A stretch of 57,694 bases of DNA from an uncultured archaeon (GCA_964456345.1 CAYVZO010000001.1:1-57694); one strand, 5' to 3'; shown: positions 1,666 through 28,070, counted from the first letter of the stretch. Notes: a model not told the origin generated them from the letters alone. A program made the numbers and translations.

Positions 1666-2793
1666 ATGAAGATTGCTCTGCTAACAAGCCAGTTCCCTCC
1701 GATAGTCGGCGGTGTTGCAAAGATAACCGAGATGGTAGCAGGTGAGCTTTGCAGACGAGGAAACGAAGTAGAAGTTTATACTGACGTTGGCAAGCATTTC
1801 TTCAAGCACAGGTTTCCAGGAACTAGCCCCACAGAAAAAAGGGGTTTTGTTGTAAAAAGGTACAAATCCCATGATATTTTTCGGGGCTACCATTTTAACA
1901 AAAAGATGGTATGTGACATTATAAAAGAGGATTACGATGTAATACATTCCTATCATTTCGGCTATCTGCCTGCCACGTTTGGTTTAGTAGCCTCGAAGGC
2001 AAGACATATCCCGCATATCTTCACCCCAGAATACCATCCACCTATTTATGGTGTGAGAAGGAAATTGCTTTTCTGGTCTTATCAGTTAACACAAGGGCTT
2101 CCTCTGCTGAGGTTCTCTGACAGGGTTATTGCACTTACCGATTATGAGAAGAGGATGATAATGAAGGTGGGCGCAAAAAAAGATAACATATCAATAATAC
2201 CAAATCCTGTTGATGCAGATTTCTTTAAAAGAGCAAATACCGAAAAAATCAGGAGAAGATACAACCTGAAGAAAAAGGTTGTGCTTTATGCCGGAGGGAG
2301 CAGCAAAACAAAAGGAATGCATATCGTCTTCAAGATGGCTGAAAACCTTGTTAAAAAATGTGACTGTTCTTTCGTTCTCCTCGGCGAGGGTGAACTCCAG
2401 GAAAGCCTCAAAAGGAGGAACAGGAATAAAGACATAATATTCCTTCCATTCGCTGACAGGCAGACTTTAAAGGACTTCTACAGTGTTGCTGACGTGCTTG
2501 CACACCCATCTTATTACGAGGCCTTTGGCATGGTTCTGGCAGAGGCCATGGCCTGCGAGGTTCCCATCGTTTCAACTAAACAGGGGGGTATACCAGAAGT
2601 TGTGGATAATGCAGGCTTTGTTGTGAATTACGGGGATTGGAAAAAGTTCGAGAACCACGTTGAAAAGCTTTTGGAAAGCAGTTCTCTGAGAAAGTCTATT
2701 GGAAAGGCTGCCAGGAAAAGGGTTCTTGAAAAGTTTGATTTAAAACCGGTTGTTAACAGTATAATTGGAGTGTATGAGGGTGTTAGAAAATGA
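1666..2793 (+). CDS. Glycosyltransferase, GT4 family
   Basis: 375 aa. SQFPPIVGGVA at the N-terminus and HPSYYEAFGMVLAEAMACEVPIVSTKQGGIPEVV near the C-terminus. Confidence 0.85.
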   Translation: MKIALLTSQFPPIVGGVAKITEMVAGELCRRGNEVEVYTDVGKHFFKHRFPGTSPTEKRGFVVKRYKSHDIFRGYHFNKKMVCDIIKEDYDVIHSYHFGYLPATFGLVASKARHIPHIFTPEYHPPIYGVRRKLLFWSYQLTQGLPLLRFSDRVIALTDYEKRMIMKVGAKKDNISIIPNPVDADFFKRANTEKIRRRYNLKKKVVLYAGGSSKTKGMHIVFKMAENLVKKCDCSFVLLGEGELQESLKRRNRNKDIIFLPFADRQTLKDFYSVADVLAHPSYYEAFGMVLAEAMACEVPIVSTKQGGIPEVVDNAGFVVNYGDWKKFENHVEKLLESSSLRKSIGKAARKRVLEKFDLKPVVNSIIGVYEGVRK

Positions 2794-3719
2794 ATTCTAT
2801 ATCAGTAGTTATATGCACCAAAGACAGGCCTGACAGTGTAAACCGCCTAGTCAACGCACTAAAAAAACAGAGTTTCAAAGATTTTGAAACTATAGTCGTT
2901 GATACGGGGAACAAAGAAACGGAAAAGGTTTGCAAAGATCAGTCTGTTAAATACATAAAAGAAACCAGGCCAGGCAGGTGCCTTGCTAGGAACATCGGCA
3001 TAGAGAACGCCAAAGGTGATATAATATTCTTTTTTGACGATGACACTGCTCCTGAAGAGAATTACATAAAAAAGATTATGAAGCATTTTGATGATGAATC
3101 TGTCGTAGGGGCAGGAGGCAGAGAGATAACTGTTATTGAAAATGGCAGGGCGAGCATGTCCTTGCTTTCGAAGTTTGAGGCAGTTTTGGTCTATATCCTT
3201 AACCCGTTCATAAAAAACAAGGAGATAGGAATAATAAGGCCAAGCGGCAGGGCAACAGCAAACTTCAACATGGACCCCGGACATACTGTTGACGTCATGT
3301 ACCTCAAGGGGTTTGCGATGGCTTTCAGGAAGAATGCCCTTCTCAGGGCAGGCATGTTCGACGAATGGTACGATAGGGTCGCGCACAGGGAAGAAAACGA
3401 CATATGTGCAAGGATAATCAAAAAAGGTTACAGGATAGTGTACGATCCATCTGCTGTAGTCAAGCATTACCATTCAGAAGCCGGTCGTTCGGACCATTAC
3501 ACAGCAATGTATTGTATGTACAAGCAGCATCAGTACTTCGTGTTCAAGAATGACATGCTGAAAGGGTTCGGATGGATTGAATATCTTTTTGGCGAAGCAC
3601 TGGAATCCATGATGATATTCATTAAACTTTTTATATACAAGGACTGGCGCTTCCTTGGCTTATTCAGGGCCAAGTATGAAGGGATACGCGAAGGTCTCAG
3701 GAGGAAGTGGATGGCATGA
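2790..3719 (+). CDS. Glycosyltransferase, GT2 family
   Basis: 309 aa. ISVVICTKDRPD start and FFFDDD (DXD-type) motif. ATGA overlap with the upstream GT4 gene. Confidence 0.8.
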   Translation: MNSISVVICTKDRPDSVNRLVNALKKQSFKDFETIVVDTGNKETEKVCKDQSVKYIKETRPGRCLARNIGIENAKGDIIFFFDDDTAPEENYIKKIMKHFDDESVVGAGGREITVIENGRASMSLLSKFEAVLVYILNPFIKNKEIGIIRPSGRATANFNMDPGHTVDVMYLKGFAMAFRKNALLRAGMFDEWYDRVAHREENDICARIIKKGYRIVYDPSAVVKHYHSEAGRSDHYTAMYCMYKQHQYFVFKNDMLKGFGWIEYLFGEALESMMIFIKLFIYKDWRFLGLFRAKYEGIREGLRRKWMA

Positions 3720-17891: not shown

Positions 17892-18224
17892 TCATTTCCC
17901 CTCAAGTTCCATTATGGCTTTTGCCAGGTCGTTGTCAAGCTCTTCCAACTTTTTGACAACAGTTGTCCTGTCTTTGCCTGTCTTTTCCATGACCATTTTT
18001 ATATCGTCCTCACTTACCTGCGATGATTCGCTTACCTCACCGCTTATCTGGTAAACTTCCTTGCCCATCATGTCTGTTATCATGACCTCTGGCTTGGAGA
18101 TTATTACGTTTTTGTCATGGCATTTTATTATTACTTCCTCTGCTTCGAGCTCACGCACGTTCATGTTGAGCTTCTTCATCATTTCCTGCACTTTCTTCGG
18201 GCTCATCTTACCTGGCAGCATCAT
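17892..18224 (-). CDS. nac: Nascent polypeptide-associated complex protein (archaeal NAC)
   Basis: NAC domain (VRELEAEEVIIKCHDKNVIISKPEVMI...YQISGE) followed by a UBA-like tail (SEDDIKMVMEKTGKDRTTVVKKLEE). Confidence 0.8.
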   Translation of the reverse strand: MMLPGKMSPKKVQEMMKKLNMNVRELEAEEVIIKCHDKNVIISKPEVMITDMMGKEVYQISGEVSESSQVSEDDIKMVMEKTGKDRTTVVKKLEELDNDLAKAIMELEGK

Positions 18225-18266
18225 AAAAACATCTATTCTTATTTATCACGTGCTTATTATTTAAAT

Positions 18267-19457
18267 ATGTTTGAGTTTGCCTTGCTTCTTTTGCTCGGCA
18301 TCCTTGCTGGAGTGGTAATGGGGCTTATACCAGGCATCCACCCGAACCTTATAGTATTGACAGTGCCCTTTCTGCTCGTCCTGGATATAGCGTCGTTATA
18401 CCTCCTGGTTTTCATGGTTGCCATGGCAGTAACCAACAGCATAGTGGATTTCATACCATCTATATTTCTGGGCGCGCCTGATTCAGGCAACGAGCTGTCC
18501 ATACTGCCTGGGCACAGGATGCTTCTTTCTGGTCAGGGCTACCAGGCAGTGAAACTCACTGTTATAGGCGGTGTGGGCTCTGTCATTGTCTGTGTGCTGC
18601 TGCTGCCTTTTTTGGTTTTTATTGTGCCTTTTCTCTTCAGAATCCTTGGTAATTATATCTTCGTCCTGCTGGCAGGAATTGTCCTTGCTATGGTCCTGAG
18701 CGAGCCAGGGAAGAAAAAGATTGTCGCGATAGCCTGTTTTTCCCTTGCAGGCGTGATCGGCCTTCTTGCAGCCAGGCTTCCTATAGACAGTAATCTTGTG
18801 CTTTTTCCTATATTTTCGGGTTTCTTCGGTCTCAGCCTGCTTGTGCTTCAGCTGAAGAACAATGTCGTGGTGCCTAAACAGAAGAAAAGCGAGGGCTTCA
18901 TTTCTTCTCGGCTCATAAACCGCTCGATATTGTCAGGCTCGTTCGGAGGCGTTGTCTCCGGCCTTCTTCCTGGCGTAGGCTCAAGCGAGATTGCGTCTCT
19001 CGTCAGCATGAACAGGAATGACAGGTCTTTCCTAATCTCGATAGGTGCATTGACAACCGCGAATATAATAATTTCCCTTCTTGCTTTGTGGTTAATAGGC
19101 AAAACAAGAGCAGGCGTGGCTGTGGCAATAAACCAGCTTATGGCTATTGGAACGAACGAATTCTTGGTTATAATATTCGCCTCTCTGGCTGCCTGCGGGG
19201 TAGCTGCTGTTGCGACTTTGATACTGGCAAAAGTAATACTCAACAAGATTCAGGGAATAAATTACAGCACTATTAGTTTGTTCGTGATTGTCATGCTGGT
19301 CTCTCTGATTGCCATATTTACCGGATTCTATGGTCTCGTCCTTGCGTTAACGTGCTGCTCCTTGGGTATATTCACGAATCTCGCAGGAGTAAAGCGCGGA
19401 AACCTCATGGGTGTATTAATATTGCCGACAATATTGTTTTACATCGGGTTCTTGTAG
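18267..19457 (+). CDS. TctA-family (DUF112) tripartite tricarboxylate-transporter-like permease
   Basis: Polytopic protein with GLIPGIHPN and GLLPGVGSSE loops characteristic of DUF112. The ATG at 18267 avoids overlap with the NAC gene. Confidence 0.65.
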   Translation: MFEFALLLLLGILAGVVMGLIPGIHPNLIVLTVPFLLVLDIASLYLLVFMVAMAVTNSIVDFIPSIFLGAPDSGNELSILPGHRMLLSGQGYQAVKLTVIGGVGSVIVCVLLLPFLVFIVPFLFRILGNYIFVLLAGIVLAMVLSEPGKKKIVAIACFSLAGVIGLLAARLPIDSNLVLFPIFSGFFGLSLLVLQLKNNVVVPKQKKSEGFISSRLINRSILSGSFGGVVSGLLPGVGSSEIASLVSMNRNDRSFLISIGALTTANIIISLLALWLIGKTRAGVAVAINQLMAIGTNEFLVIIFASLAACGVAAVATLILAKVILNKIQGINYSTISLFVIVMLVSLIAIFTGFYGLVLALTCCSLGIFTNLAGVKRGNLMGVLILPTILFYIGFL

Positions 19458-20177: not shown

Positions 20178-22868
20178 TTACTTCTTTTTTTTCATTTTTG
20201 TTCCTGATGAACCACTGCAGCTTATCAGAAGTTCACCTCCGCATTCACATACTCCCTGGAGCGGTATCCTCCTGTAGGTCTTGTTGCATTTTTTGCATAT
20301 AAAACCTTCCCAGTCATCAACTACCTGCTCCTTTTTCTGTGGCCTGTATTCTATTTCTATGTCATGCTTCATCTTCCTTTTGTTTCCGTTCATGATGTCA
20401 AATATGCTGGTCTGTCTGCCATTCCCAAGAAGTTCGCTTTTCGTTATTCCTAGTGAAGCCAGGATTCTTTCTATTGGCGGGAATAGCTGGTTATGTATGT
20501 AATAATCAGAATCTATCTGGAGCCCTTTCTTTTTGACGTAATTCGGGTCTTCAGCTCTTTTAGAGAGCATCTGGTTGCCGCGGACTATGACAAAGTCTAT
20601 GCGCTCGCCTACGATGGGTTTGTTTTGGGGCTCCCGCTCTGCGATTTTCTTGGCAAGCTCTATGTGCGGAAGCGTTCCTGCATAGTTTTCAATGCTCTTT
20701 GTTATGCCTTTTGTAATCGTAAGCTTTTCTGCAGGTATCTCGTTGTTCCTCAGCTTTTCCAGCACCTCCCTTACCTTGTTTATGGCCTTTTCGATGTCAC
20801 CCTCTTTCAAAACGATTTCAAGTATCTCTATCATGGTTTCTGATACAAGGGGACACCAGTCCCTTCTCACTGTCTCTATGCCCTTCATTTCTATGCTGTC
20901 TTTCCACTCGTCATCCACTTTCTCGAACTTCCAGCCAGCATAGCGCTTTTTTGTCAGTATCAGGAAGGTGCGGTATATCTTCTCGAATTCAAGCTCGAGC
21001 TTGCCTGGCAATTTTTGTGTCACAAAATCTGATATTTTCTTGCCAAGTTCTTCTGCATCATCTAATTTTGTTATATTGGTCTTTAGAAATATGGAATCAG
21101 TATCACCATAAACAACTGTGACAGGGAAGTTGTCTTCTATGAGTTTTTTCGTCTTCACGATATTATCCCTTCCAAAAGCTGTTATGGTGTTTGCCACATC
21201 TATCATGTATAAGCGGGCTCGTATGTAGCCTGTATAGCCGTAGAATGAGTTGGACATATCCTTTAGCGCAAGCTGCCTGGCATTCAGTATGCGCCTGGCT
21301 TCGCCAGACTCCTTCTTCATCTCCTTCTTTATGCGCCCTCTTGCCACCATAAGCTCCCTTAGTATCCGTGGCATCACGCCTTCCCTTGTTTCCTTGTCAA
21401 CAAACAAGGCACCTGAAGGTGATTTTATAGCTGCTTTTTTTTCACCGTCCAAAAGAAGAGTGTCTGGCGATACGTTATAGGTACGCATTATGCTCGGATA
21501 AAGGCTCTTGAAGTCCAGGACAAGTATGCACCCCTCAGAGTGCAGTCCTTTTATCGGCTCAAGGACTGTAGCGCCCTTCAGCCCTTTTTTCGCCCTTTCC
21601 CTTGCGCGCTTTGACAGGACTGCACTGTTCGGCTTCGACGGCATTACAAAATTGCTTTCCTTGAATTCATGCAGTATTTTTATTTCCACCCTGGAAGACT
21701 GTCCTCCGAATGTATCCTGGAGCAGGAGACCCGAGACCTTAGAAAGCTCGAAGAATTTGTCAAGAAGCCTCACCTTTAGGAGCAGGTCCAGGTTCAGCTG
21801 GGCATCCTTTCTCGAATATTCAATAAATCTTTTCGGGTCTTTTTTCCAAAGCTCAGGCATTTCACCATAGGTGACGTCAAGCTTCTCCTCGTTTAGCAGC
21901 TCTTTGGCTATGTTCTTAAGTGTGTATCTGTGGAATTTAACCCAGGGGTCTCTCTTCAGTATCTGGTAAGGATCGACAACGACACGTCCCTGGACAATAC
22001 AGTCCTGCGTCATGCCGTATGTTCTCGTAAAGACATTTTTCTCACAGCGCCCGAAATTCTGCTGCAGCTTGTGGTGTTTTAGCCTTTCGAGTAGATAGGG
22101 GAAGTCGAAGTTGTTGCAGTTGTAGCCTGTTACGATATCAGGGTCGAAACTGTCTACTATCCTGAGGAATTCCTCAAGCATCTCCTTCTCGCTCGGGAAC
22201 CCCCTTGCATCTTTCCCCCTAAACGGCTTCGCGAGTATGACCAGGCTTTTCATCCCCCTGAATTCAGGCTTGAAAGCAAGGGACACCATTATGATCTGGT
22301 CCTTCTTTGCGTCAAGCGGCTTGTTCACGTCGTGAGGTATGCACTCTATGTCAAAGGAGAGATATTTGAGGTCGAGGTTTTCTTTCCTCTGGATTGCTTT
22401 TAGCTTCCTTACGTGGTAAGAGGGGACTTTCGACGCCTTTGTAAAGGCCTTCTCGCCCTCTGCCTCAACCCAGTCCATGCCATGCAGACCATGATCAACC
22501 ATGAACCTGTACTTGAACAGTATGTCCGCCTCATAAGAATCCTCGATCACGCCGTCAGCCAGCAGCTGGTCCTTTACCTTGGGCACGTTCTGCGGATTCG
22601 TGAGCGTAAGTTTGTAGAGCTTGGCCGGCTTTTCGTTGTACCCGAGCGGTATGAGCTTCTCAACCTCCTCTATTTTTATTATTTCTTTCATGTCTTCCAG
22701 GCTGGACAGCGCGAGTCTGTTTTTCTCGTTAAGCTTTACATAGAAATAGGGCATAAAGTCATCGTAGATGGCGCATACGGATTTGCCGTTCTCTGTCTTC
22801 CCAAACAGCCTAAGAACCGGCTTGCTGCCGTTTAGAAAGTAATCACTATCCAATAACTGAAAGAGCAT
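20178..22868 (-). CDS. polB: Family B DNA polymerase with about 65-aa C-terminal Cys-cluster (zinc-ribbon-like) extension
   Basis: Exo I FDIEC, Exo II NCNNFDFPYL, Exo III YSRKDAQL, motif A DFKSLYPSIM, motif B KDMSNSFYGYTGY, motif C VYGDTDS. C-terminal CKKCNKTYRRIPLQGVCECGG. Confidence 0.95.
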   Translation of the reverse strand: MLFQLLDSDYFLNGSKPVLRLFGKTENGKSVCAIYDDFMPYFYVKLNEKNRLALSSLEDMKEIIKIEEVEKLIPLGYNEKPAKLYKLTLTNPQNVPKVKDQLLADGVIEDSYEADILFKYRFMVDHGLHGMDWVEAEGEKAFTKASKVPSYHVRKLKAIQRKENLDLKYLSFDIECIPHDVNKPLDAKKDQIIMVSLAFKPEFRGMKSLVILAKPFRGKDARGFPSEKEMLEEFLRIVDSFDPDIVTGYNCNNFDFPYLLERLKHHKLQQNFGRCEKNVFTRTYGMTQDCIVQGRVVVDPYQILKRDPWVKFHRYTLKNIAKELLNEEKLDVTYGEMPELWKKDPKRFIEYSRKDAQLNLDLLLKVRLLDKFFELSKVSGLLLQDTFGGQSSRVEIKILHEFKESNFVMPSKPNSAVLSKRARERAKKGLKGATVLEPIKGLHSEGCILVLDFKSLYPSIMRTYNVSPDTLLLDGEKKAAIKSPSGALFVDKETREGVMPRILRELMVARGRIKKEMKKESGEARRILNARQLALKDMSNSFYGYTGYIRARLYMIDVANTITAFGRDNIVKTKKLIEDNFPVTVVYGDTDSIFLKTNITKLDDAEELGKKISDFVTQKLPGKLELEFEKIYRTFLILTKKRYAGWKFEKVDDEWKDSIEMKGIETVRRDWCPLVSETMIEILEIVLKEGDIEKAINKVREVLEKLRNNEIPAEKLTITKGITKSIENYAGTLPHIELAKKIAEREPQNKPIVGERIDFVIVRGNQMLSKRAEDPNYVKKKGLQIDSDYYIHNQLFPPIERILASLGITKSELLGNGRQTSIFDIMNGNKRKMKHDIEIEYRPQKKEQVVDDWEGFICKKCNKTYRRIPLQGVCECGGELLISCSGSSGTKMKKKK

Positions 22869-22915: not shown

Positions 22916-24034
22916 TTATATTTTCGACCTCATCAAGTCCACCTGGGCAGCCTCGCGGGTTTCTAAATCTATTACGACAGGCCTGAATTTTGCAAGAGGC
23001 GAGCCCGAATTTACGAGTGTGACGGACTTGTAGTTCATTATTTGCGGCTCGTGCGTGTGCCCAAAATGGACTATGTCAGGCACCTCTTCCAGAACAAGAT
23101 GGTCTTCGGCCATGACAGCCCTTGTTTTTCCGAGATGCCTCTTCTTCAGCATGCTGATGTCCATTTCATGTATAACAAGAATTTTTACGCCGTTTACCTC
23201 AACCATGGAAGGATTGCTGAGCGGTATTATTTCCCTGCTGTCAAAATTCATCGGCAGCTGAGGATACTCGTCGCCATCGACGTTGCCAGGTATCACGAAA
23301 ACCTTTCTGCCGTAGCAGTGCTTGGCAACCATATCATCCAAACTTTTTACGTCTGCTGTATCGCCTGCTATAAAAAGATATTTTATGTCCTGGTTTTCGA
23401 ACCAGGTGAAGAATTTCTCTATGTCAGCAGACGGGCTCTCATCCAGGTGAAGGTCCGAGATAAAGCAGACTTTCCCGTGCCCCTTGACAGGAGTCCTCAA
23501 CGGAATGTCCGGGTAGATGATTTCCTTGCCGAAAAGTATTTTACCCCCTGAAACCGCCCTTACAGCAACAACGTCGTCAAGCTCGAGGTCGTTCTTTTCC
23601 TCAAAAAGTATTGGTATTGTAGCTGTCTGGTCTTCAAGGTCGACGGCTACTCCTTTCTCTTTCTCCTTTACGTCCTTGACTATTCCTATAACATAAACCT
23701 CGTTGCGAAAGCTGTCCAGCTTGTTCAGTGAAATGAAATTCTTCTGGAGCCTCTTCATGAGTATATTCTTTGTTTTCTCGTACCTTGACATGTAGAACCG
23801 TACGAAATCGTCTGTAGAGGCCTCCTTGAGCTTCTCTGTAATGTTCTTTATCACTCTTACCTTTTCTGTTTTGGCGTCTCTCTGCACAAAATCCTGCGGA
23901 GTCAGAACGAGCTTTTCCTGCACGGGTTTGAGTTCTTCCTTCTGGTTTTCCAAGAAAGACAGAGCCTCTGGCGTAAGCAGCATGCCCTTGTCCAGATAAC
24001 TCTTAACAATATTCTCCTTTTCCATAAATCTCAC
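22916..24034 (-). CDS. DNA polymerase II (PolD) small subunit DP1-like / B-subunit family protein, short form
   Basis: N-terminal IVKSYLDKGMLLTPEALSFL and an OB segment VYVIGIVKDV...LEDQTATIPILF. Phosphoesterase motifs are ISDLHLD, IAGDTAD, PGNVDG, VIHE and GHTHE. Only 372 aa. Confidence 0.8.
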   Translation of the reverse strand: MRFMEKENIVKSYLDKGMLLTPEALSFLENQKEELKPVQEKLVLTPQDFVQRDAKTEKVRVIKNITEKLKEASTDDFVRFYMSRYEKTKNILMKRLQKNFISLNKLDSFRNEVYVIGIVKDVKEKEKGVAVDLEDQTATIPILFEEKNDLELDDVVAVRAVSGGKILFGKEIIYPDIPLRTPVKGHGKVCFISDLHLDESPSADIEKFFTWFENQDIKYLFIAGDTADVKSLDDMVAKHCYGRKVFVIPGNVDGDEYPQLPMNFDSREIIPLSNPSMVEVNGVKILVIHEMDISMLKKRHLGKTRAVMAEDHLVLEEVPDIVHFGHTHEPQIMNYKSVTLVNSGSPLAKFRPVVIDLETREAAQVDLMRSKI

Positions 24035-24040
24035 AAGAAA

Positions 24041-25255
24041 TCACTCAAAACGCTCGTCAAGGAAGGTCTTGACCTTTTCGAGAACAGAATCGTTTATGGC
24101 GAGCGATATTTCCCGTGTCCTGCCATAACGGCCCTTTGATATCACCTTTGCGTTTATTATACCCAGCATATCAAGCTCGCTTATAAGGTCGCTTACCCTC
24201 CTCTGTGTCAGGCATTTCAGAGCGTTGTCCTGGCATATCCTTTTGTAGGTATTGAAAACATCTCCTGTAAGGAGCCTCCTGTCAACCCATGTGCCTCCGT
24301 TGTTTTCGTGACCATTGCCAAGCCGTATTATGGCGTTCAGGACTGCTTGTGAATGTTTTGGCTGCGTCTTTATGGTTTCAGATACCCTATCCAGGTCGAT
24401 TTTCTCTTCAGCTGCATCAACGTGCCTTTCTTCTATATCCTGGTCGCCAAGGCGTTCGCTTATTTCTCCCGCCACCCTCAACAGGTCCAGGGCGCGCCTT
24501 GCATCACCATGCTCTTGCGCAGCAAGCGCTGCACACTTGTTTATCACATGGTCTTTTATCTCACAATTGAACCCCTGCTTTATCCTCTGAGACAAGATGT
24601 CCCTTAGCTGAACAGCGTCATAAGGCCTGAAAATCGCCTCTTCCTCACTAAGCGAGGACTTTATCCTCTGGTCCAGCGTATCGCGGAACGACAAATCATT
24701 TGTAATGCCTATGATTGTCACTGTGGAGTTCTTTAGGTCGGTATTAATCCGCGTGAGATTGTAAAGGAACTCATCTCCTATTTTCCTGAAAAGGTTGTCT
24801 ATCTCGTCCAGAACGATGATAAGTGCCTGTTTCTTCTCGTCTATAGTATCAAAGAATTTTCTGTAAAGAACATCGGTTGGCAGTCCTGTATCAGGCACGG
24901 TCTCGCCAAGCTCTTTCAGCATCTGTGCCAGCAAACGGTATTCTGTATCCGCCACCTTCTTCATCTTGCAGTTTATGTATATTGATGTTATGTTTCTGTT
25001 CTTTGTTATCTGTTTTAGCTGACTCAACACGAACTTCACTACAACTGTCTTGCCTGTCCCGCATGTACCATATATGAAAAGGTTGTTAACACTATATCCA
25101 CGAAGCGCAGGCGCGAGGACAGCGCTTATCTGTTTTATCTCCTCTTCCCTGTGCAGTATCTTTTCAGGAGTGAAATTAGCAGTAAGTGCGTTTTTGTTCT
25201 TAAAAATAGTGGGTTTTTCTAAATAAGTAGAAAATATATTATCCACAAACCACAC
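24041..25255 (-). CDS. cdc6: Orc1/Cdc6 replication initiator
   Basis: Walker A GTCGTGKT, Walker B IIVLDEID, GDARRALDLLR and a C-terminal winged helix. GTG start. Confidence 0.95.
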   Translation of the reverse strand: MWFVDNIFSTYLEKPTIFKNKNALTANFTPEKILHREEEIKQISAVLAPALRGYSVNNLFIYGTCGTGKTVVVKFVLSQLKQITKNRNITSIYINCKMKKVADTEYRLLAQMLKELGETVPDTGLPTDVLYRKFFDTIDEKKQALIIVLDEIDNLFRKIGDEFLYNLTRINTDLKNSTVTIIGITNDLSFRDTLDQRIKSSLSEEEAIFRPYDAVQLRDILSQRIKQGFNCEIKDHVINKCAALAAQEHGDARRALDLLRVAGEISERLGDQDIEERHVDAAEEKIDLDRVSETIKTQPKHSQAVLNAIIRLGNGHENNGGTWVDRRLLTGDVFNTYKRICQDNALKCLTQRRVSDLISELDMLGIINAKVISKGRYGRTREISLAINDSVLEKVKTFLDERFE

Positions 25256-25465
25256 CCCAAACTAACCTTAATTTCTTTTAGAAAGTATATAAATATATCT
25301 CTATCGGAAACTAAGGTTATTAACCTATATTTTTTGAAAACAAAAACCCCCCTATATTTCTTATAGAGACCTTGTGTTGTTGTTTTTCTTTCTATAACGA
25401 TGTTATAAGAAGCTATGGTTGTTGATTTTGACAAAGTTTTAAATTCTCCATAAGAAAACAGCCCC
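25256..25465. promoter_or_regulatory. orc1/cdc6 upstream region (promoter; classical position for an oriC, but short)
   Basis: 210 bp, AT-rich. It contains TAACCTTA / TAAGGTTA inverted copies and the 13-bp palindrome AGGTTATTAACCT. No ORB-like long repeats seen. Confidence 0.3.
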
Positions 25466-25867
25466 TCAGACCAGGGAAAATTTTATTGTGTAATAGATAA
25501 GCCCGTTTTTGCCATCTTCATGCTGCTGCCTGAAAACAGGAGCAACACGCGAACCTTTTTTTATCTTTTCAGTGTCTCCCACAACAGGGGCTGTGATGTT
25601 AGGCCCTTCATCTAGTTTTATAACAGCCAGGACATAGGGCGCAAGGCGTTCGAAACCAGCAGGCGGGGCGTGAATTTTGGTATAGCTTATGACCTCGCCT
25701 GTGCCTGCTAGCCTGTGTTCGACAAGGTTGCCCCTGCGTCTGCACTCAGGGCAGAAACTTCTTGGTGGAAAAAACACGCTACCGCAGGTTACACAACGAT
25801 TGCCGAAAAGGCTGTATTTACTCTTCTTCAATCGCCAAAATAAAGGCACGCTGGATTTATGAGGCAT
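25466..25867 (-). CDS. DUF35 OB-fold/zinc-ribbon protein (thiolase-HMGCS scaffold)
   Basis: CVTCGSVFFPPRSFCPEC zinc ribbon followed by an OB-fold. Directly downstream of the thiolase gene. Confidence 0.85.
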   Translation of the reverse strand: MPHKSSVPLFWRLKKSKYSLFGNRCVTCGSVFFPPRSFCPECRRRGNLVEHRLAGTGEVISYTKIHAPPAGFERLAPYVLAVIKLDEGPNITAPVVGDTEKIKKGSRVAPVFRQQHEDGKNGLIYYTIKFSLV

Positions 25868-27036
25868 TATTTCAACTCCCTGCTTAGTATGCTTACTACT
25901 GCTGTAGCTCCTGACCCACCAACGTTCAGGGCAAGACCTGTTTTTGCGTTTTTTACTTGGTTTATAGAACTTCCGCGAAGCTGCTTCACTATATCGACAA
26001 TCTGTCTTATCCCTGTTGCGCCGACTGGGTGGCCAATCGCTTTCAGACCACCCGTCGTGTTCGTCGGTATTATACCACCAAGCATAACATTGCCGTCTTC
26101 CACGAACCTGCCGCCCATTCCTGGCTCACAGAAGCCAAGCCCCTCCAGGGAAAGTATCTCATTTATGGTGAAGCAATCATGAACCTCTGCCACGTCTATA
26201 TCTTCTGGCCGCAGGCCAGCTGTTTCATAAGCTTTTTTTGCCGCTATCTTTGTCGCAAGAATCTCTGTTAAGGAGGCCCTGTCGTGTAGTGCAAGCGCAT
26301 CTGATGCCTGCTCTGACGACAACACCCAGACAGGATCCTTGAAACCCTCAGCCATTTTTTCTGATACAAGGACCAAAGACGCAGCACCGTCTGTTATAGG
26401 CGAACAGTCAAGAAGATGCAGCGGCTCAGCTATCATTGACGAAGAAAGCACGTCTTTTATTGTTATTTCTGACCTGTATTGGGCAAGTTCGTTGTTCAGA
26501 GCATTTTTGTGGTTTATTACAGCAACCTTAGCCATCTGCTCCGGCGTTGTGCCGTACTGTTCCATGTGAGCGCGGGCCATGAGTGCGTATAAGCCAGGAA
26601 AAGTCATGCCGATTGCTGCTTCCCATTCCTGGTCGCCTGCGCCTATAAGAGAGGTAGTGACCTCACCGGTCTTCAGGTCCGTCATCTTCTCAGCTCCAGC
26701 AGCCATCACAATGTCGTATTTGCCAGAAGCAATAGCAAGGCAGGCCTGCCTGAACGCTAGTGCGCCTGAAGCACACGCAGCCTCGCACCTGGTTGCAGCT
26801 ATAGGGTTGAGCCCTGCTTGGTCAACAGCCAGCGCTGCCAGGTGTTCCTGTCCCACGAAGCGGCCAGAAGACATGTTTCCTACGTACAGCGACTGAATTT
26901 CAGTACCGTGAAGCTTCGCATCTTCAAGAGCAGTCTTGCCAGCTTCTACTGACAAGTCGCGAAGCGATTTGTTCCAGTGCTCTCCAAATTTCGTCTGCGC
27001 AACACCAACAACAGCAATGCCCATCATTTTTATCAC
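25867..27036 (-). CDS. Acetyl-CoA C-acetyltransferase (archaeal thiolase)
   Basis: Thiolase fold with [13 protein letters not shown] active-site Cys region and C-terminal GHPVGATG / NVGGSGAT. Confidence 0.9.
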
Positions 27037-28070
27037 ATCTTCAGCTTTTTCCTCAACCTGACGTAATTACCGTAATCGACATAGCTTTTTTTCCTTATAT
27101 AGTAATCAGTAGTTGGGGCCAGAGCCCTTCTTTTCACGAGATTATCCGTGACTGTCAACGCAAAGGAGTCAGAGCCAGCACCTGAGCCAAACGACGTCAT
27201 GAGTATGCGCTCACCCGGCTTCGCGATATCGAGAGTTGAGCAAAGCCCTATTAAAGAAGACGCGGAGTACGTGTTTCCAATCTTCTTTACCACAAGACCA
27301 GGCATCACCTTCTCTTTTTCAAACCCGAGTTTTTTTGCTGCTGACAAAGGGAACTTTCCGTTCGGCATGTGGAAAACCGCGTAATCAAAATCTTTAGGCT
27401 CTGCGTTTACCTTCTTCAAAAGGCCCTTTGTCGCTGATATTACATGATGGAAATACGCCGGCTCGCCTGTGAATCTCGCACCGTGCTTCGGATAGGTCTC
27501 GCCCTCGCGCCGCCAGAAATCAGGAGTATCAGTGGTGTAAGAATACATATCATCTATTGTTGCAAGCGGGTCCTCGCCTATTATGAAGGAAGCTGATCCT
27601 GCAGCAGCTGTATATTCAAGAGCGTCGCCAGGCATGCCCTGCGCTGTGTCAGAGCCTATGGCAAGTCCGCTTTTTACCATGCCTGATTTTACAAGGCCCA
27701 TGCAGCACTGGATAGCTGCTGTACCTGCCTTGCACGCGAATTCGAAATCAGCAACAAGCACCTCAGGCACGATTCCAAGCGCTTCTGCCACGACTGTTCC
27801 GGAAGGCTTTACAGCGTAGGGATGACTCTCTGAGCCTATGAAAAGGGCACCCACATCTTTCGGGTCCATGCCAGCACGCAAAAACGCATTTTTTGCGGAT
27901 TCAACGCTCATCGTTATCGTGTCCTCATCCATGTCAGGCACGGTTTTCTCCTCAACCATCAGGGAATTCTTTATGTTCTCCGCATCCTGCCCCCATATGC
28001 GTGCAATCTCCTCCACCTTTATCCTGTAAGCAGGCAGGTAGGCTCCGTAACCAACTATACCGTGACTCAT
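27033..28070 (-). CDS. Hydroxymethylglutaryl-CoA synthase
   Basis: 345 aa. [13 protein letters not shown] start, [14 protein letters not shown] catalytic Cys region and FHMPNGKFP. First gene of the HMGCS-thiolase-DUF35 operon. Confidence 0.9.

Follow-up and report, generated by a model that had tools for sequence, protein, structure and literature searches.

The window, a stretch of 57,694 nucleotides analysed as a whole, belongs to the genome assembly GCA_964456345.1, which comprises 730 kb in 92 contigs and is ~90% complete. On its minus strand, at positions 22916–24034, lies an open reading frame for a protein of 372 aa that starts with GTG; an alternative ATG three codons in (24025) would yield the 369-aa product of the public gene calls (P0001). 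The gene is termed here DP1-like (B-subunit-like) on the basis of the open reading frame list, the NCBIfam DP1 models, the Pfam Metallophos_2 and DNA_pol_E_B matches, and a fold match to P. abyssi DP1 and the eukaryotic B-subunits. Immediately upstream, across a 6-nt gap, is the gene of an Orc1/Cdc6 replication initiator (24041–25255, minus strand; NF001625, E 8e-147). On the other side, after a gap of 47 nt, lies a family-B DNA polymerase of 896 aa (PolB; 20178–22868, minus strand; Pfam DNA_pol_B, E 7e-115), the presumed catalytic partner of the DP1-like protein. The nearest named relatives of the DP1-like protein belong to Candidatus Aenigmatarchaeota/Aenigmarchaeota (59–61% identity), and 426 homologues, with a length of about 355–375 aa, are known.

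The order HMGCS, thiolase, DUF35, cdc6, DP1-like and PolB (884–902 aa) was also found on three distant contigs of 248–391 kb, on one of which the DP1-like gene has motif III deleted. The gene order of the cdc6–DP1-like–polB neighbourhood is unusually stable for such small, fast-evolving genomes. Directly upstream of cdc6, in the window (25466–28070) and at loci L004, L006 and L007, is the mevalonate-pathway trio HMG-CoA synthase, thiolase and DUF35. A TctA-family gene lies downstream of the cluster in three distant Aenigmatarchaeota contigs, and the candidate frame in the window is 18117–19457. In the 210-bp gap upstream of orc1/cdc6 (25256–25465), a search for origin-type repeats revealed no clear ORB-type array, only short dyads and imperfect repeats. 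One dyad there has 20-nt arms at 25263–25282 and 25300–25319 that are 80% complementary.

PolB is the single match in its own genome, and hence the only B-family polymerase there. Its Exo I, II and III and polymerase motifs are intact, and the segments FDIEC, NxxFD, YxxxD and YGDTDS are invariant. The protein ends in a zinc knuckle, CKKCNKTYRRIPLQGVCECGGE (20232–20297, minus strand), which appears to derive from DP2 Zn-III and is the presumed docking element for the DP1-like protein. The knuckle (CKKC...CEC, PolB residues 858–876) matches positions 1014–1050 of the DP2 model TIGR00354 (E 1.6e-5 to 2.9e-6) and is conserved in relatives. The PolB tail also holds an RRxP stretch that resembles the KxRRxP loop of DP2. 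In PolD, R1131/R1132 belong to a Zn-III loop (KxRRxP) that occupies the acidic OB/PDE groove of DP1 (PMC6355029). Both the gene adjacency and the RRxP loop fit with binding of the DP1-like protein to the PolB C-terminal domain. Between the polymerase domain and the zinc knuckle, a conserved GxGRQxS block contains QTSIFDIM (PolB residues 819–826; 20391–20414, minus strand), which looks like a degenerate PCNA-binding (PIP-type) motif. It sits where ordinary archaeal PolB proteins end.

The DP1-like protein consists of N-terminal helices, an OB fold and a phosphodiesterase (PDE) domain, in that order. The N-terminal helical domain (residues 1–56; 23867–24034, minus strand) is the counterpart of DP1N, with the NF003118 alignment starting at residue 4 and modelled helices at residues 6–15, 22–29 and 47–55. 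Its 'KGxLLTPxAL' core is kept across all lineages of the phylum, even those without PDE motifs. A linker helix, the OB fold and a YPDIPLR connector follow (residues 57–180; 23495–23866, minus strand), aligned to the OB region of P. abyssi DP1 and with modelled strands within residues 112–173. Residues E134, D135, D154, P175, D176, P178 and R180 of this region are invariant. The trimmed calcineurin-like PDE domain occupies residues 186–372 (22919–23479, minus strand; Pfam PF12850, E 1.3e-17).

The NCBIfam DP1 model NF003118 matched the N-terminal and OB half of the protein (residues 4–228, E 1.6e-44), with a score of 152.7 bits that is far under the equivalog cut-off of 445 bits. Pfam PF04042 (DNA_pol_E_B) scored 20.4 bits, under its gathering cut-off of 29.1 bits. 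Metallophos_2 (PF12850), the best Pfam match, and Metallophos cover residues 188–348, and TIGR00040 (yfcE) gave 48.1 bits, so that its cut-off of 56.25 bits was not reached. An AlphaFold2 model was built on 63 homologues (pLDDT 93.4, pTM 0.84) and compared with the PDB using Foldseek. P. abyssi DP1 ranked first (E 3e-27, TM about 0.7). Human and yeast B-subunits, those of Pol delta, alpha, epsilon and zeta, came next (E 1e-17 to 1e-14), and YfcE/Vps29/Mre11-type enzymes appeared further down, at only E 1e-7 to 1e-5. The 63-sequence family profile also matched DP1 in the PDB (E 4e-28). Because of the NCBIfam DP1 matches and the PDB matches of the AlphaFold2 model, we conclude that sequence profile and fold mark the protein as a true but divergent homologue of DP1 and the B-subunits, and as a member of this superfamily that the curated cut-offs miss. 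The DP1 N-terminal helices, OB fold and calcineurin-like domain named in the preliminary description of this DNA are borne out by NF003118, Metallophos_2/Metallophos and the AlphaFold2 fold.

The protein could instead have no tie to replication and be a phosphoesterase of the YfcE/MJ0936 type that stands alone, or a DP1 that took on the PDE domain of such an enzyme in place of its own. Such a reading is extremely improbable. The relatives are publicly annotated as 'metallophosphoesterase family protein' and Metallophos_2 is the best Pfam match, but the N-terminal and OB regions match DP1, and the PDE domain alone aligns over its full length with that of canonical DP1 from f9, the one DP2-bearing family of the phylum (28–31% identity, E 1e-16 to 1e-19). 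The alignment includes the DP1-specific blocks LKKRHL, VPDI and NYK. Foldseek places DP1 and the B-subunits 10–20 orders of magnitude before YfcE-like proteins, and synteny with cdc6 and polB is fixed. The full-length alignment and the DP1-specific blocks rule out a swapped-in YfcE-like domain, and the trimmed PDE is a reduced DP1 domain.

The motifs listed in the preliminary description (DxH, GDxxD and GHxH kept, PGNVDG and HE) were all located in the translation. Motif I (D194-L-H196, DxH; 23447–23455, minus strand) and motif V (G325-H326-T-H328, GHxH; 23051–23062, minus strand) keep their metal ligands, and motif II is G224-D225-T-A-D228 (GDxxD; 23351–23365, minus strand). Motif IV is H289-E290 (23165–23170, minus strand), HE in place of HG, with the His ligand kept and the Gly changed to Glu. 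Motif III reads P249-G-N251-V252-D-G254 (PGNVDG; 23273–23290, minus strand), with V252 (23279–23281) in place of the proton-donor His, H451 of P. abyssi. The 63-homologue profile aligned the family 'PGxxD' with 'PGNHD' of P. abyssi (5IHE) and with 'PGNAD' of the H451A variant (6HMF). When the 63-sequence profile was compared with the PDB for the residue aligned with the catalytic His, V252 was found in the H451 column. His occurred at this column in 0 of the 63 aligned homologues, which have M, V, A, I, T, K, R or a gap. In P. abyssi DP1, H451 acts as proton donor, and the PolD commonly used as a proofreading-deficient standard carries H451A, which leaves the fold and both metals unchanged (PMC6355029; PMC10721889). 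The earlier proposal of a DP1/B-subunit homologue with a substituted catalytic His is thus supported by the profile, the fold and the alignment of V252 with H451.

That proposal would have failed had a neighbouring His occupied the catalytic site, and this is not the case: no His was found within 10 residues of V252 in the DP1-like protein. H323 is the one further His that is conserved. Since canonical, active DP1 from family f9 of this phylum has it too ('FHSGHLH'), it is ancestral, not compensatory, and was rejected as a stand-in. The complete DP1 catalytic set, which includes the motif III GNH(D/E) His, is lacking. The preliminary description had further taken loss of the motif III His as the mark of eukaryotic B-subunits. 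The DP1-like protein has indeed lost this residue, but in eukaryotic B-subunits all hydrolase active-site residues are gone, not the motif III His alone (Raia 2019, PMC6355029). The DP1-like protein is therefore an intermediate and does not represent the eukaryotic state.

The protein had also been called unusually short. This is real: its 372 aa compare with 450–490 aa for canonical DP1 in the phylum and 619 aa for P. abyssi DP1, and the NCBIfam DP1 profiles are 481–650 positions long. Deletions were mapped against the canonical DP1 of family f9 (450–490 aa, five motifs including GNHD). The DP1-like protein is without part of the N-terminal linker, and its PDE domain lacks 20 aa directly after D228 (GDxxD), 23 aa after H289 and 13 aa after K349 ('NSGSPLAK'). 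These deletions correspond, in this order, to DP1 loop-helix-loop 1 (L-H-L1), the E502 region and loop-helix-loop 2 (L-H-L2). In P. abyssi, L-H-L1 (residues 403–423, with Y412, P413 and Y415) and L-H-L2 (residues 577–597, with F586, F589 and V593) form the 'exo channel' that guides the single-stranded primer end to the metal site, and E502 contacts the terminal base (PMC10721889). The exo-channel loops that mark a DP1 proofreading subunit are absent from the DP1-like protein. Its shortness results mainly from deletions that take out these loops. Since the PDE deletions fall on the exo-channel loops, shortness and GNVD are two faces of one event, the loss of the proofreading apparatus. Neither the short length nor GNVD is due to chance or sequencing error, because 426 homologues have a similar length and no His is found in the V252 column among the 63 aligned sequences.

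The DP1-like protein is probably no longer a 3′-5′ proofreading exonuclease, because the proton-donor His is Val and the primer-threading loops are deleted. The missing His alone is not proof of inactivity, as YfcE is active with GNCD.

The context that explains the shortness and GNVD is the lack of DP2 in the genome together with a neighbouring PolB that carries a DP2-type zinc tail. In the source genome the DP2 core model PF03833 had no match and TIGR00354 matched only the last 36 residues of PolB; the DP2 catalytic subunit that would accompany a proofreading subunit is not found there. The evidence for this absence is strong, but not absolute, because the 92 contigs amount to a genome that is ~90% complete. 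The survey was extended to 151 genomes of the phylum, 138 of which carry the DP1-like gene. Full-length DP2 was confined to one family (7 genomes); one further genome has a partial copy, which lies on a short contig. Elsewhere in the phylum, the 'DP2' match was only the Zn-III segment that ends a PolB frame of ~900 aa, and this match lies about 3 kb from the DP1-like gene wherever coordinates were compared.

These results bear on whether the protein might be an ordinary small subunit of PolD, with a DP2 partner that an incomplete assembly failed to capture. A genome that is 90% complete and in 92 contigs leaves room for such an omission, but neither PF03833 nor the TIGR00354 core matched in the source genome, and 20 of the 20 other sampled genomes of the order are without DP2 and keep the DP1-like gene beside PolB. 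Moreover, the DP1 of the one DP2-bearing family differs (450–490 aa, GNHD, loops present). With DP2 absent across the sampled order, we hold this reading to be very unlikely indeed.

Across the phylum, representative DP1 and DP1-like proteins form a decay series. Those of family f9 have 450–490 aa and every motif, with DP2 present; those of family f14 have about 390 aa and GEID. In the order of the window, they have about 360–375 aa, GN[MVAI]D and the metal ligands, and in other families 290–340 aa are left with no PDE motif. The N-terminal domain, the OB fold and the blocks YPDIPL, LKKRHL, VPDI and NYKG persist throughout.

Three further observations were made in the survey. In family f16, the A1 profile found nothing DP1-like at E≤1e-5 in 7 of the 7 sampled genomes (G021, G063, G070, G076, G090, G092 and G108), and at least G021 still has a PolB frame with a Zn-III-like end; the DP1-like subunit was either lost in this family or diverged past detection. 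The f14 genome G091 carries a partial DP2 on contig C64 (11–1852) with an adjacent DP1 match (2501–3058), as well as a DP1-like gene on C11 (17916–18707). Either the two systems truly coexist in this genome, or sequence of a relative that has PolD has contaminated it. In the f9 DP2 frames G005:C12:30105–34889 (1605 aa) and G139:C34:12–4400 (1466 aa), the model match is split (~3–858 and 832–1096) by ~1.4 kb of in-frame sequence that looks like an intein.

Selection on the metal site was analyzed on a tree of 63 close homologues, from which the ligand columns had been left out. The six His/Asp ligands were lost at least 5 independent times on this tree, and they are lost wholly in other families. 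These losses notwithstanding, the N-terminal domain, OB fold and PDE shell have remained conserved. With at least 5 ligand losses, catalysis is therefore not what keeps the DP1-like gene. In the 27-sequence subclade of the window, all six ligands are invariant, compared with only 38 of the 187 PDE columns (P about 5e-5 by chance), and different hydrophobic residues (M, V, A or I) occupy column 252. The pattern points to selection on metal binding and to a metal site that is still under selection in this subclade.

The dinuclear metal site is probably kept for fold stability. Because the six ligands are invariant, some metal-dependent role may persist in the subclade. The DP1-like protein may also have a residual or altered activity there, by analogy with a YfcE subclass that has GNCD natively and still hydrolyses model diesters (bis-pNPP), although it does not cut DNA (PMC4320098). 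The protein could still be an enzyme, a metal-dependent phosphodiesterase or nuclease that has changed in mechanism and substrate, for instance through a site left open, as in Mre11 or YfcE, by the missing exo-channel loops; it would act within the PolB holoenzyme, and not on mismatched primer ends. N251 is present along with the six ligands, Metallophos_2 and TIGR00040 both give the PDE domain good scores, and Mre11 has both loops shortened, which lets dsDNA bind (PMC10721889). Against this, the ligands were lost in sister lineages with the same gene order and other families have lost every motif, and catalysis is therefore not the function they share. No conserved alternative acid stands at position 252, where the hydrophobic residue differs between sequences, and H451A kills DP1 activity. 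We consider a retained enzymatic function unlikely. A specific form of it is more doubtful still. Here the subunit of this subclade would be a repurposed metalloenzyme with a selected dinuclear centre; without the proton-donor His and the loops that confine DP1 to single-stranded 3′ ends, it would work on another substrate as part of the PolB holoenzyme, for example in the processing of flaps, RNA primers or ends. If true, the subunit would stand functionally between a DP1 that is active and eukaryotic B-subunits that are wholly dead.

Our preferred reading, which we hold with good confidence, is that the DP1-like protein is a proofreading-less accessory (B-type) subunit of the only replicative polymerase of the cell, and docks the PolB zinc knuckle after loss of DP2. 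The lineage would have lost the PolD catalytic subunit DP2, leaving as a remnant the C-terminal Zn-III knuckle fused to the end of a proofreading-competent PolB. The knuckle would dock in the OB/PDE groove of the DP1-like protein, as DP2 does on DP1, and as Pol alpha, delta and epsilon do on eukaryotic B-subunits through their C-terminal domains. Proofreading would be supplied by the DnaQ-type exonuclease domain of PolB itself. The conserved N-terminal domain would link the polymerase to other parts of the replisome, perhaps the CMG helicase by analogy with DP1N-Gins51C. In Thermococcus, DP1N binds Gins51C and PolB does not bind GINS (PMC9023282). A Pfam GINS (PF05916, Sld5) search of the source genome gave no match, with a model that misses most archaeal GINS and whose control matched only in Sulfolobus.

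Eukaryotic replicative polymerases are chimeras of a family-B core, the zinc tail of the PolD large subunit and a dead PolD proofreading subunit. The Aenigmatarchaeota put together the same combination independently, and for this reason they offer a natural model for how such a chimera arises, the motive for the 2020 publication on the case and for the return to it in 2025. The window adds no new kind of thing; it is a clean example of the tight cdc6–DP1-like–polB cluster, where DP2 is lacking and PolB is the only one. It also belongs to a graded decay within one phylum, from active DP1 with DP2, through loss of the His and the exo-channel loops with the metals kept (as in the DP1-like gene of the window), to loss of all motifs. 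Such a series could guide the choice of proteins for biochemistry on what a B-subunit does after proofreading stops. The DP1-like gene is ordinary for its phylum, and its remaining interest is the selected metal site of its subclade.

The DP1-like protein shares with the DP1 of canonical PolD (P. abyssi; PDB 5IHE, 6HMF and 8PPT) the domain order, the fold (TM about 0.7), the metal-ligand motifs I, II, IV and V, the Asn of motif III and the blocks YPDIPL, LKxRHL, VPD and NYK/VYR. It differs in being ~100–250 aa shorter, in the change of H451 to Val, in the deletion of L-H-L1, the E502 region and L-H-L2, and in having PolB rather than DP2 as partner. The single-domain YfcE/MJ0936 minimal metallophosphoesterases (PF12850, TIGR00040) have a PDE of similar size (about 185 aa) and a motif III GNxD without His (GNCD in YfcE), whereas the DP1-like protein has three domains, with the PDE fused to DP1N and OB and carrying DP1-specific blocks.

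Eukaryotic B-subunits (POLD2/p50, POLA2/p70 and POLE2/p59) likewise form an OB plus inactive PDE scaffold on the zinc-containing C-terminal domain of a family-B catalytic subunit. In contrast, the DP1-like protein keeps the metal site and is only 12–17% identical to them in sequence, and the eukaryotic C-terminal domain has two metal modules and a helical bundle where the PolB of the window has one short knuckle. Baldrarchaeia, with PolB3-DP2CTD and DP1, have also lost DP2, kept DP1 and fused PolB to a DP2-derived C-terminal domain; they are Asgard archaea with a longer, more eukaryote-like domain, whereas that of Aenigmatarchaeota is called degenerate and is shorter (PMC12680538).

The closest known system is that of the Aenigmarchaeota. 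Kazlauskas et al. (2020, NAR, PMC7544198) describe a B6-aenigma1 PolB with one DP2-like zinc motif, the absence of DP2 from most Aenigmarchaeota and a group of inactivated DP1, 'Aenigma_GB_GCA_002789635-like'; they also propose that inactivation of DP1 is affordable because PolB proofreads. A 2025 study reported by yeast two-hybrid that Aenigmatarchaeota DP1 binds PolB-DP2CTD, with Aenigmatarchaeota proteins other than the pair in the window, and that the two-zinc 'B6-aenigma2' sequences are Asgard contamination (PMC12680538). The locus of the window has the same features: a genome of the same phylum without DP2, a DP1 homologue with a defective PDE motif (GNVD for GNHD), and a neighbouring PolB with a single C-terminal Cys4 that is nearest to DP2 Zn-III. 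In the available portions of the published text on the Aenigmatarchaeota system, we found no statement of a subclade that keeps the ligands while lacking the His and the loops. The DP1-like/PolB pair is the system of Kazlauskas et al. (2020), with a B6-aenigma1 PolB, an inactivated DP1 and no DP2, and is already known in kind; nothing essential differs, and the copy in the window belongs to a subclade that has every metal ligand without the proton-donor His and the exo-channel loops.
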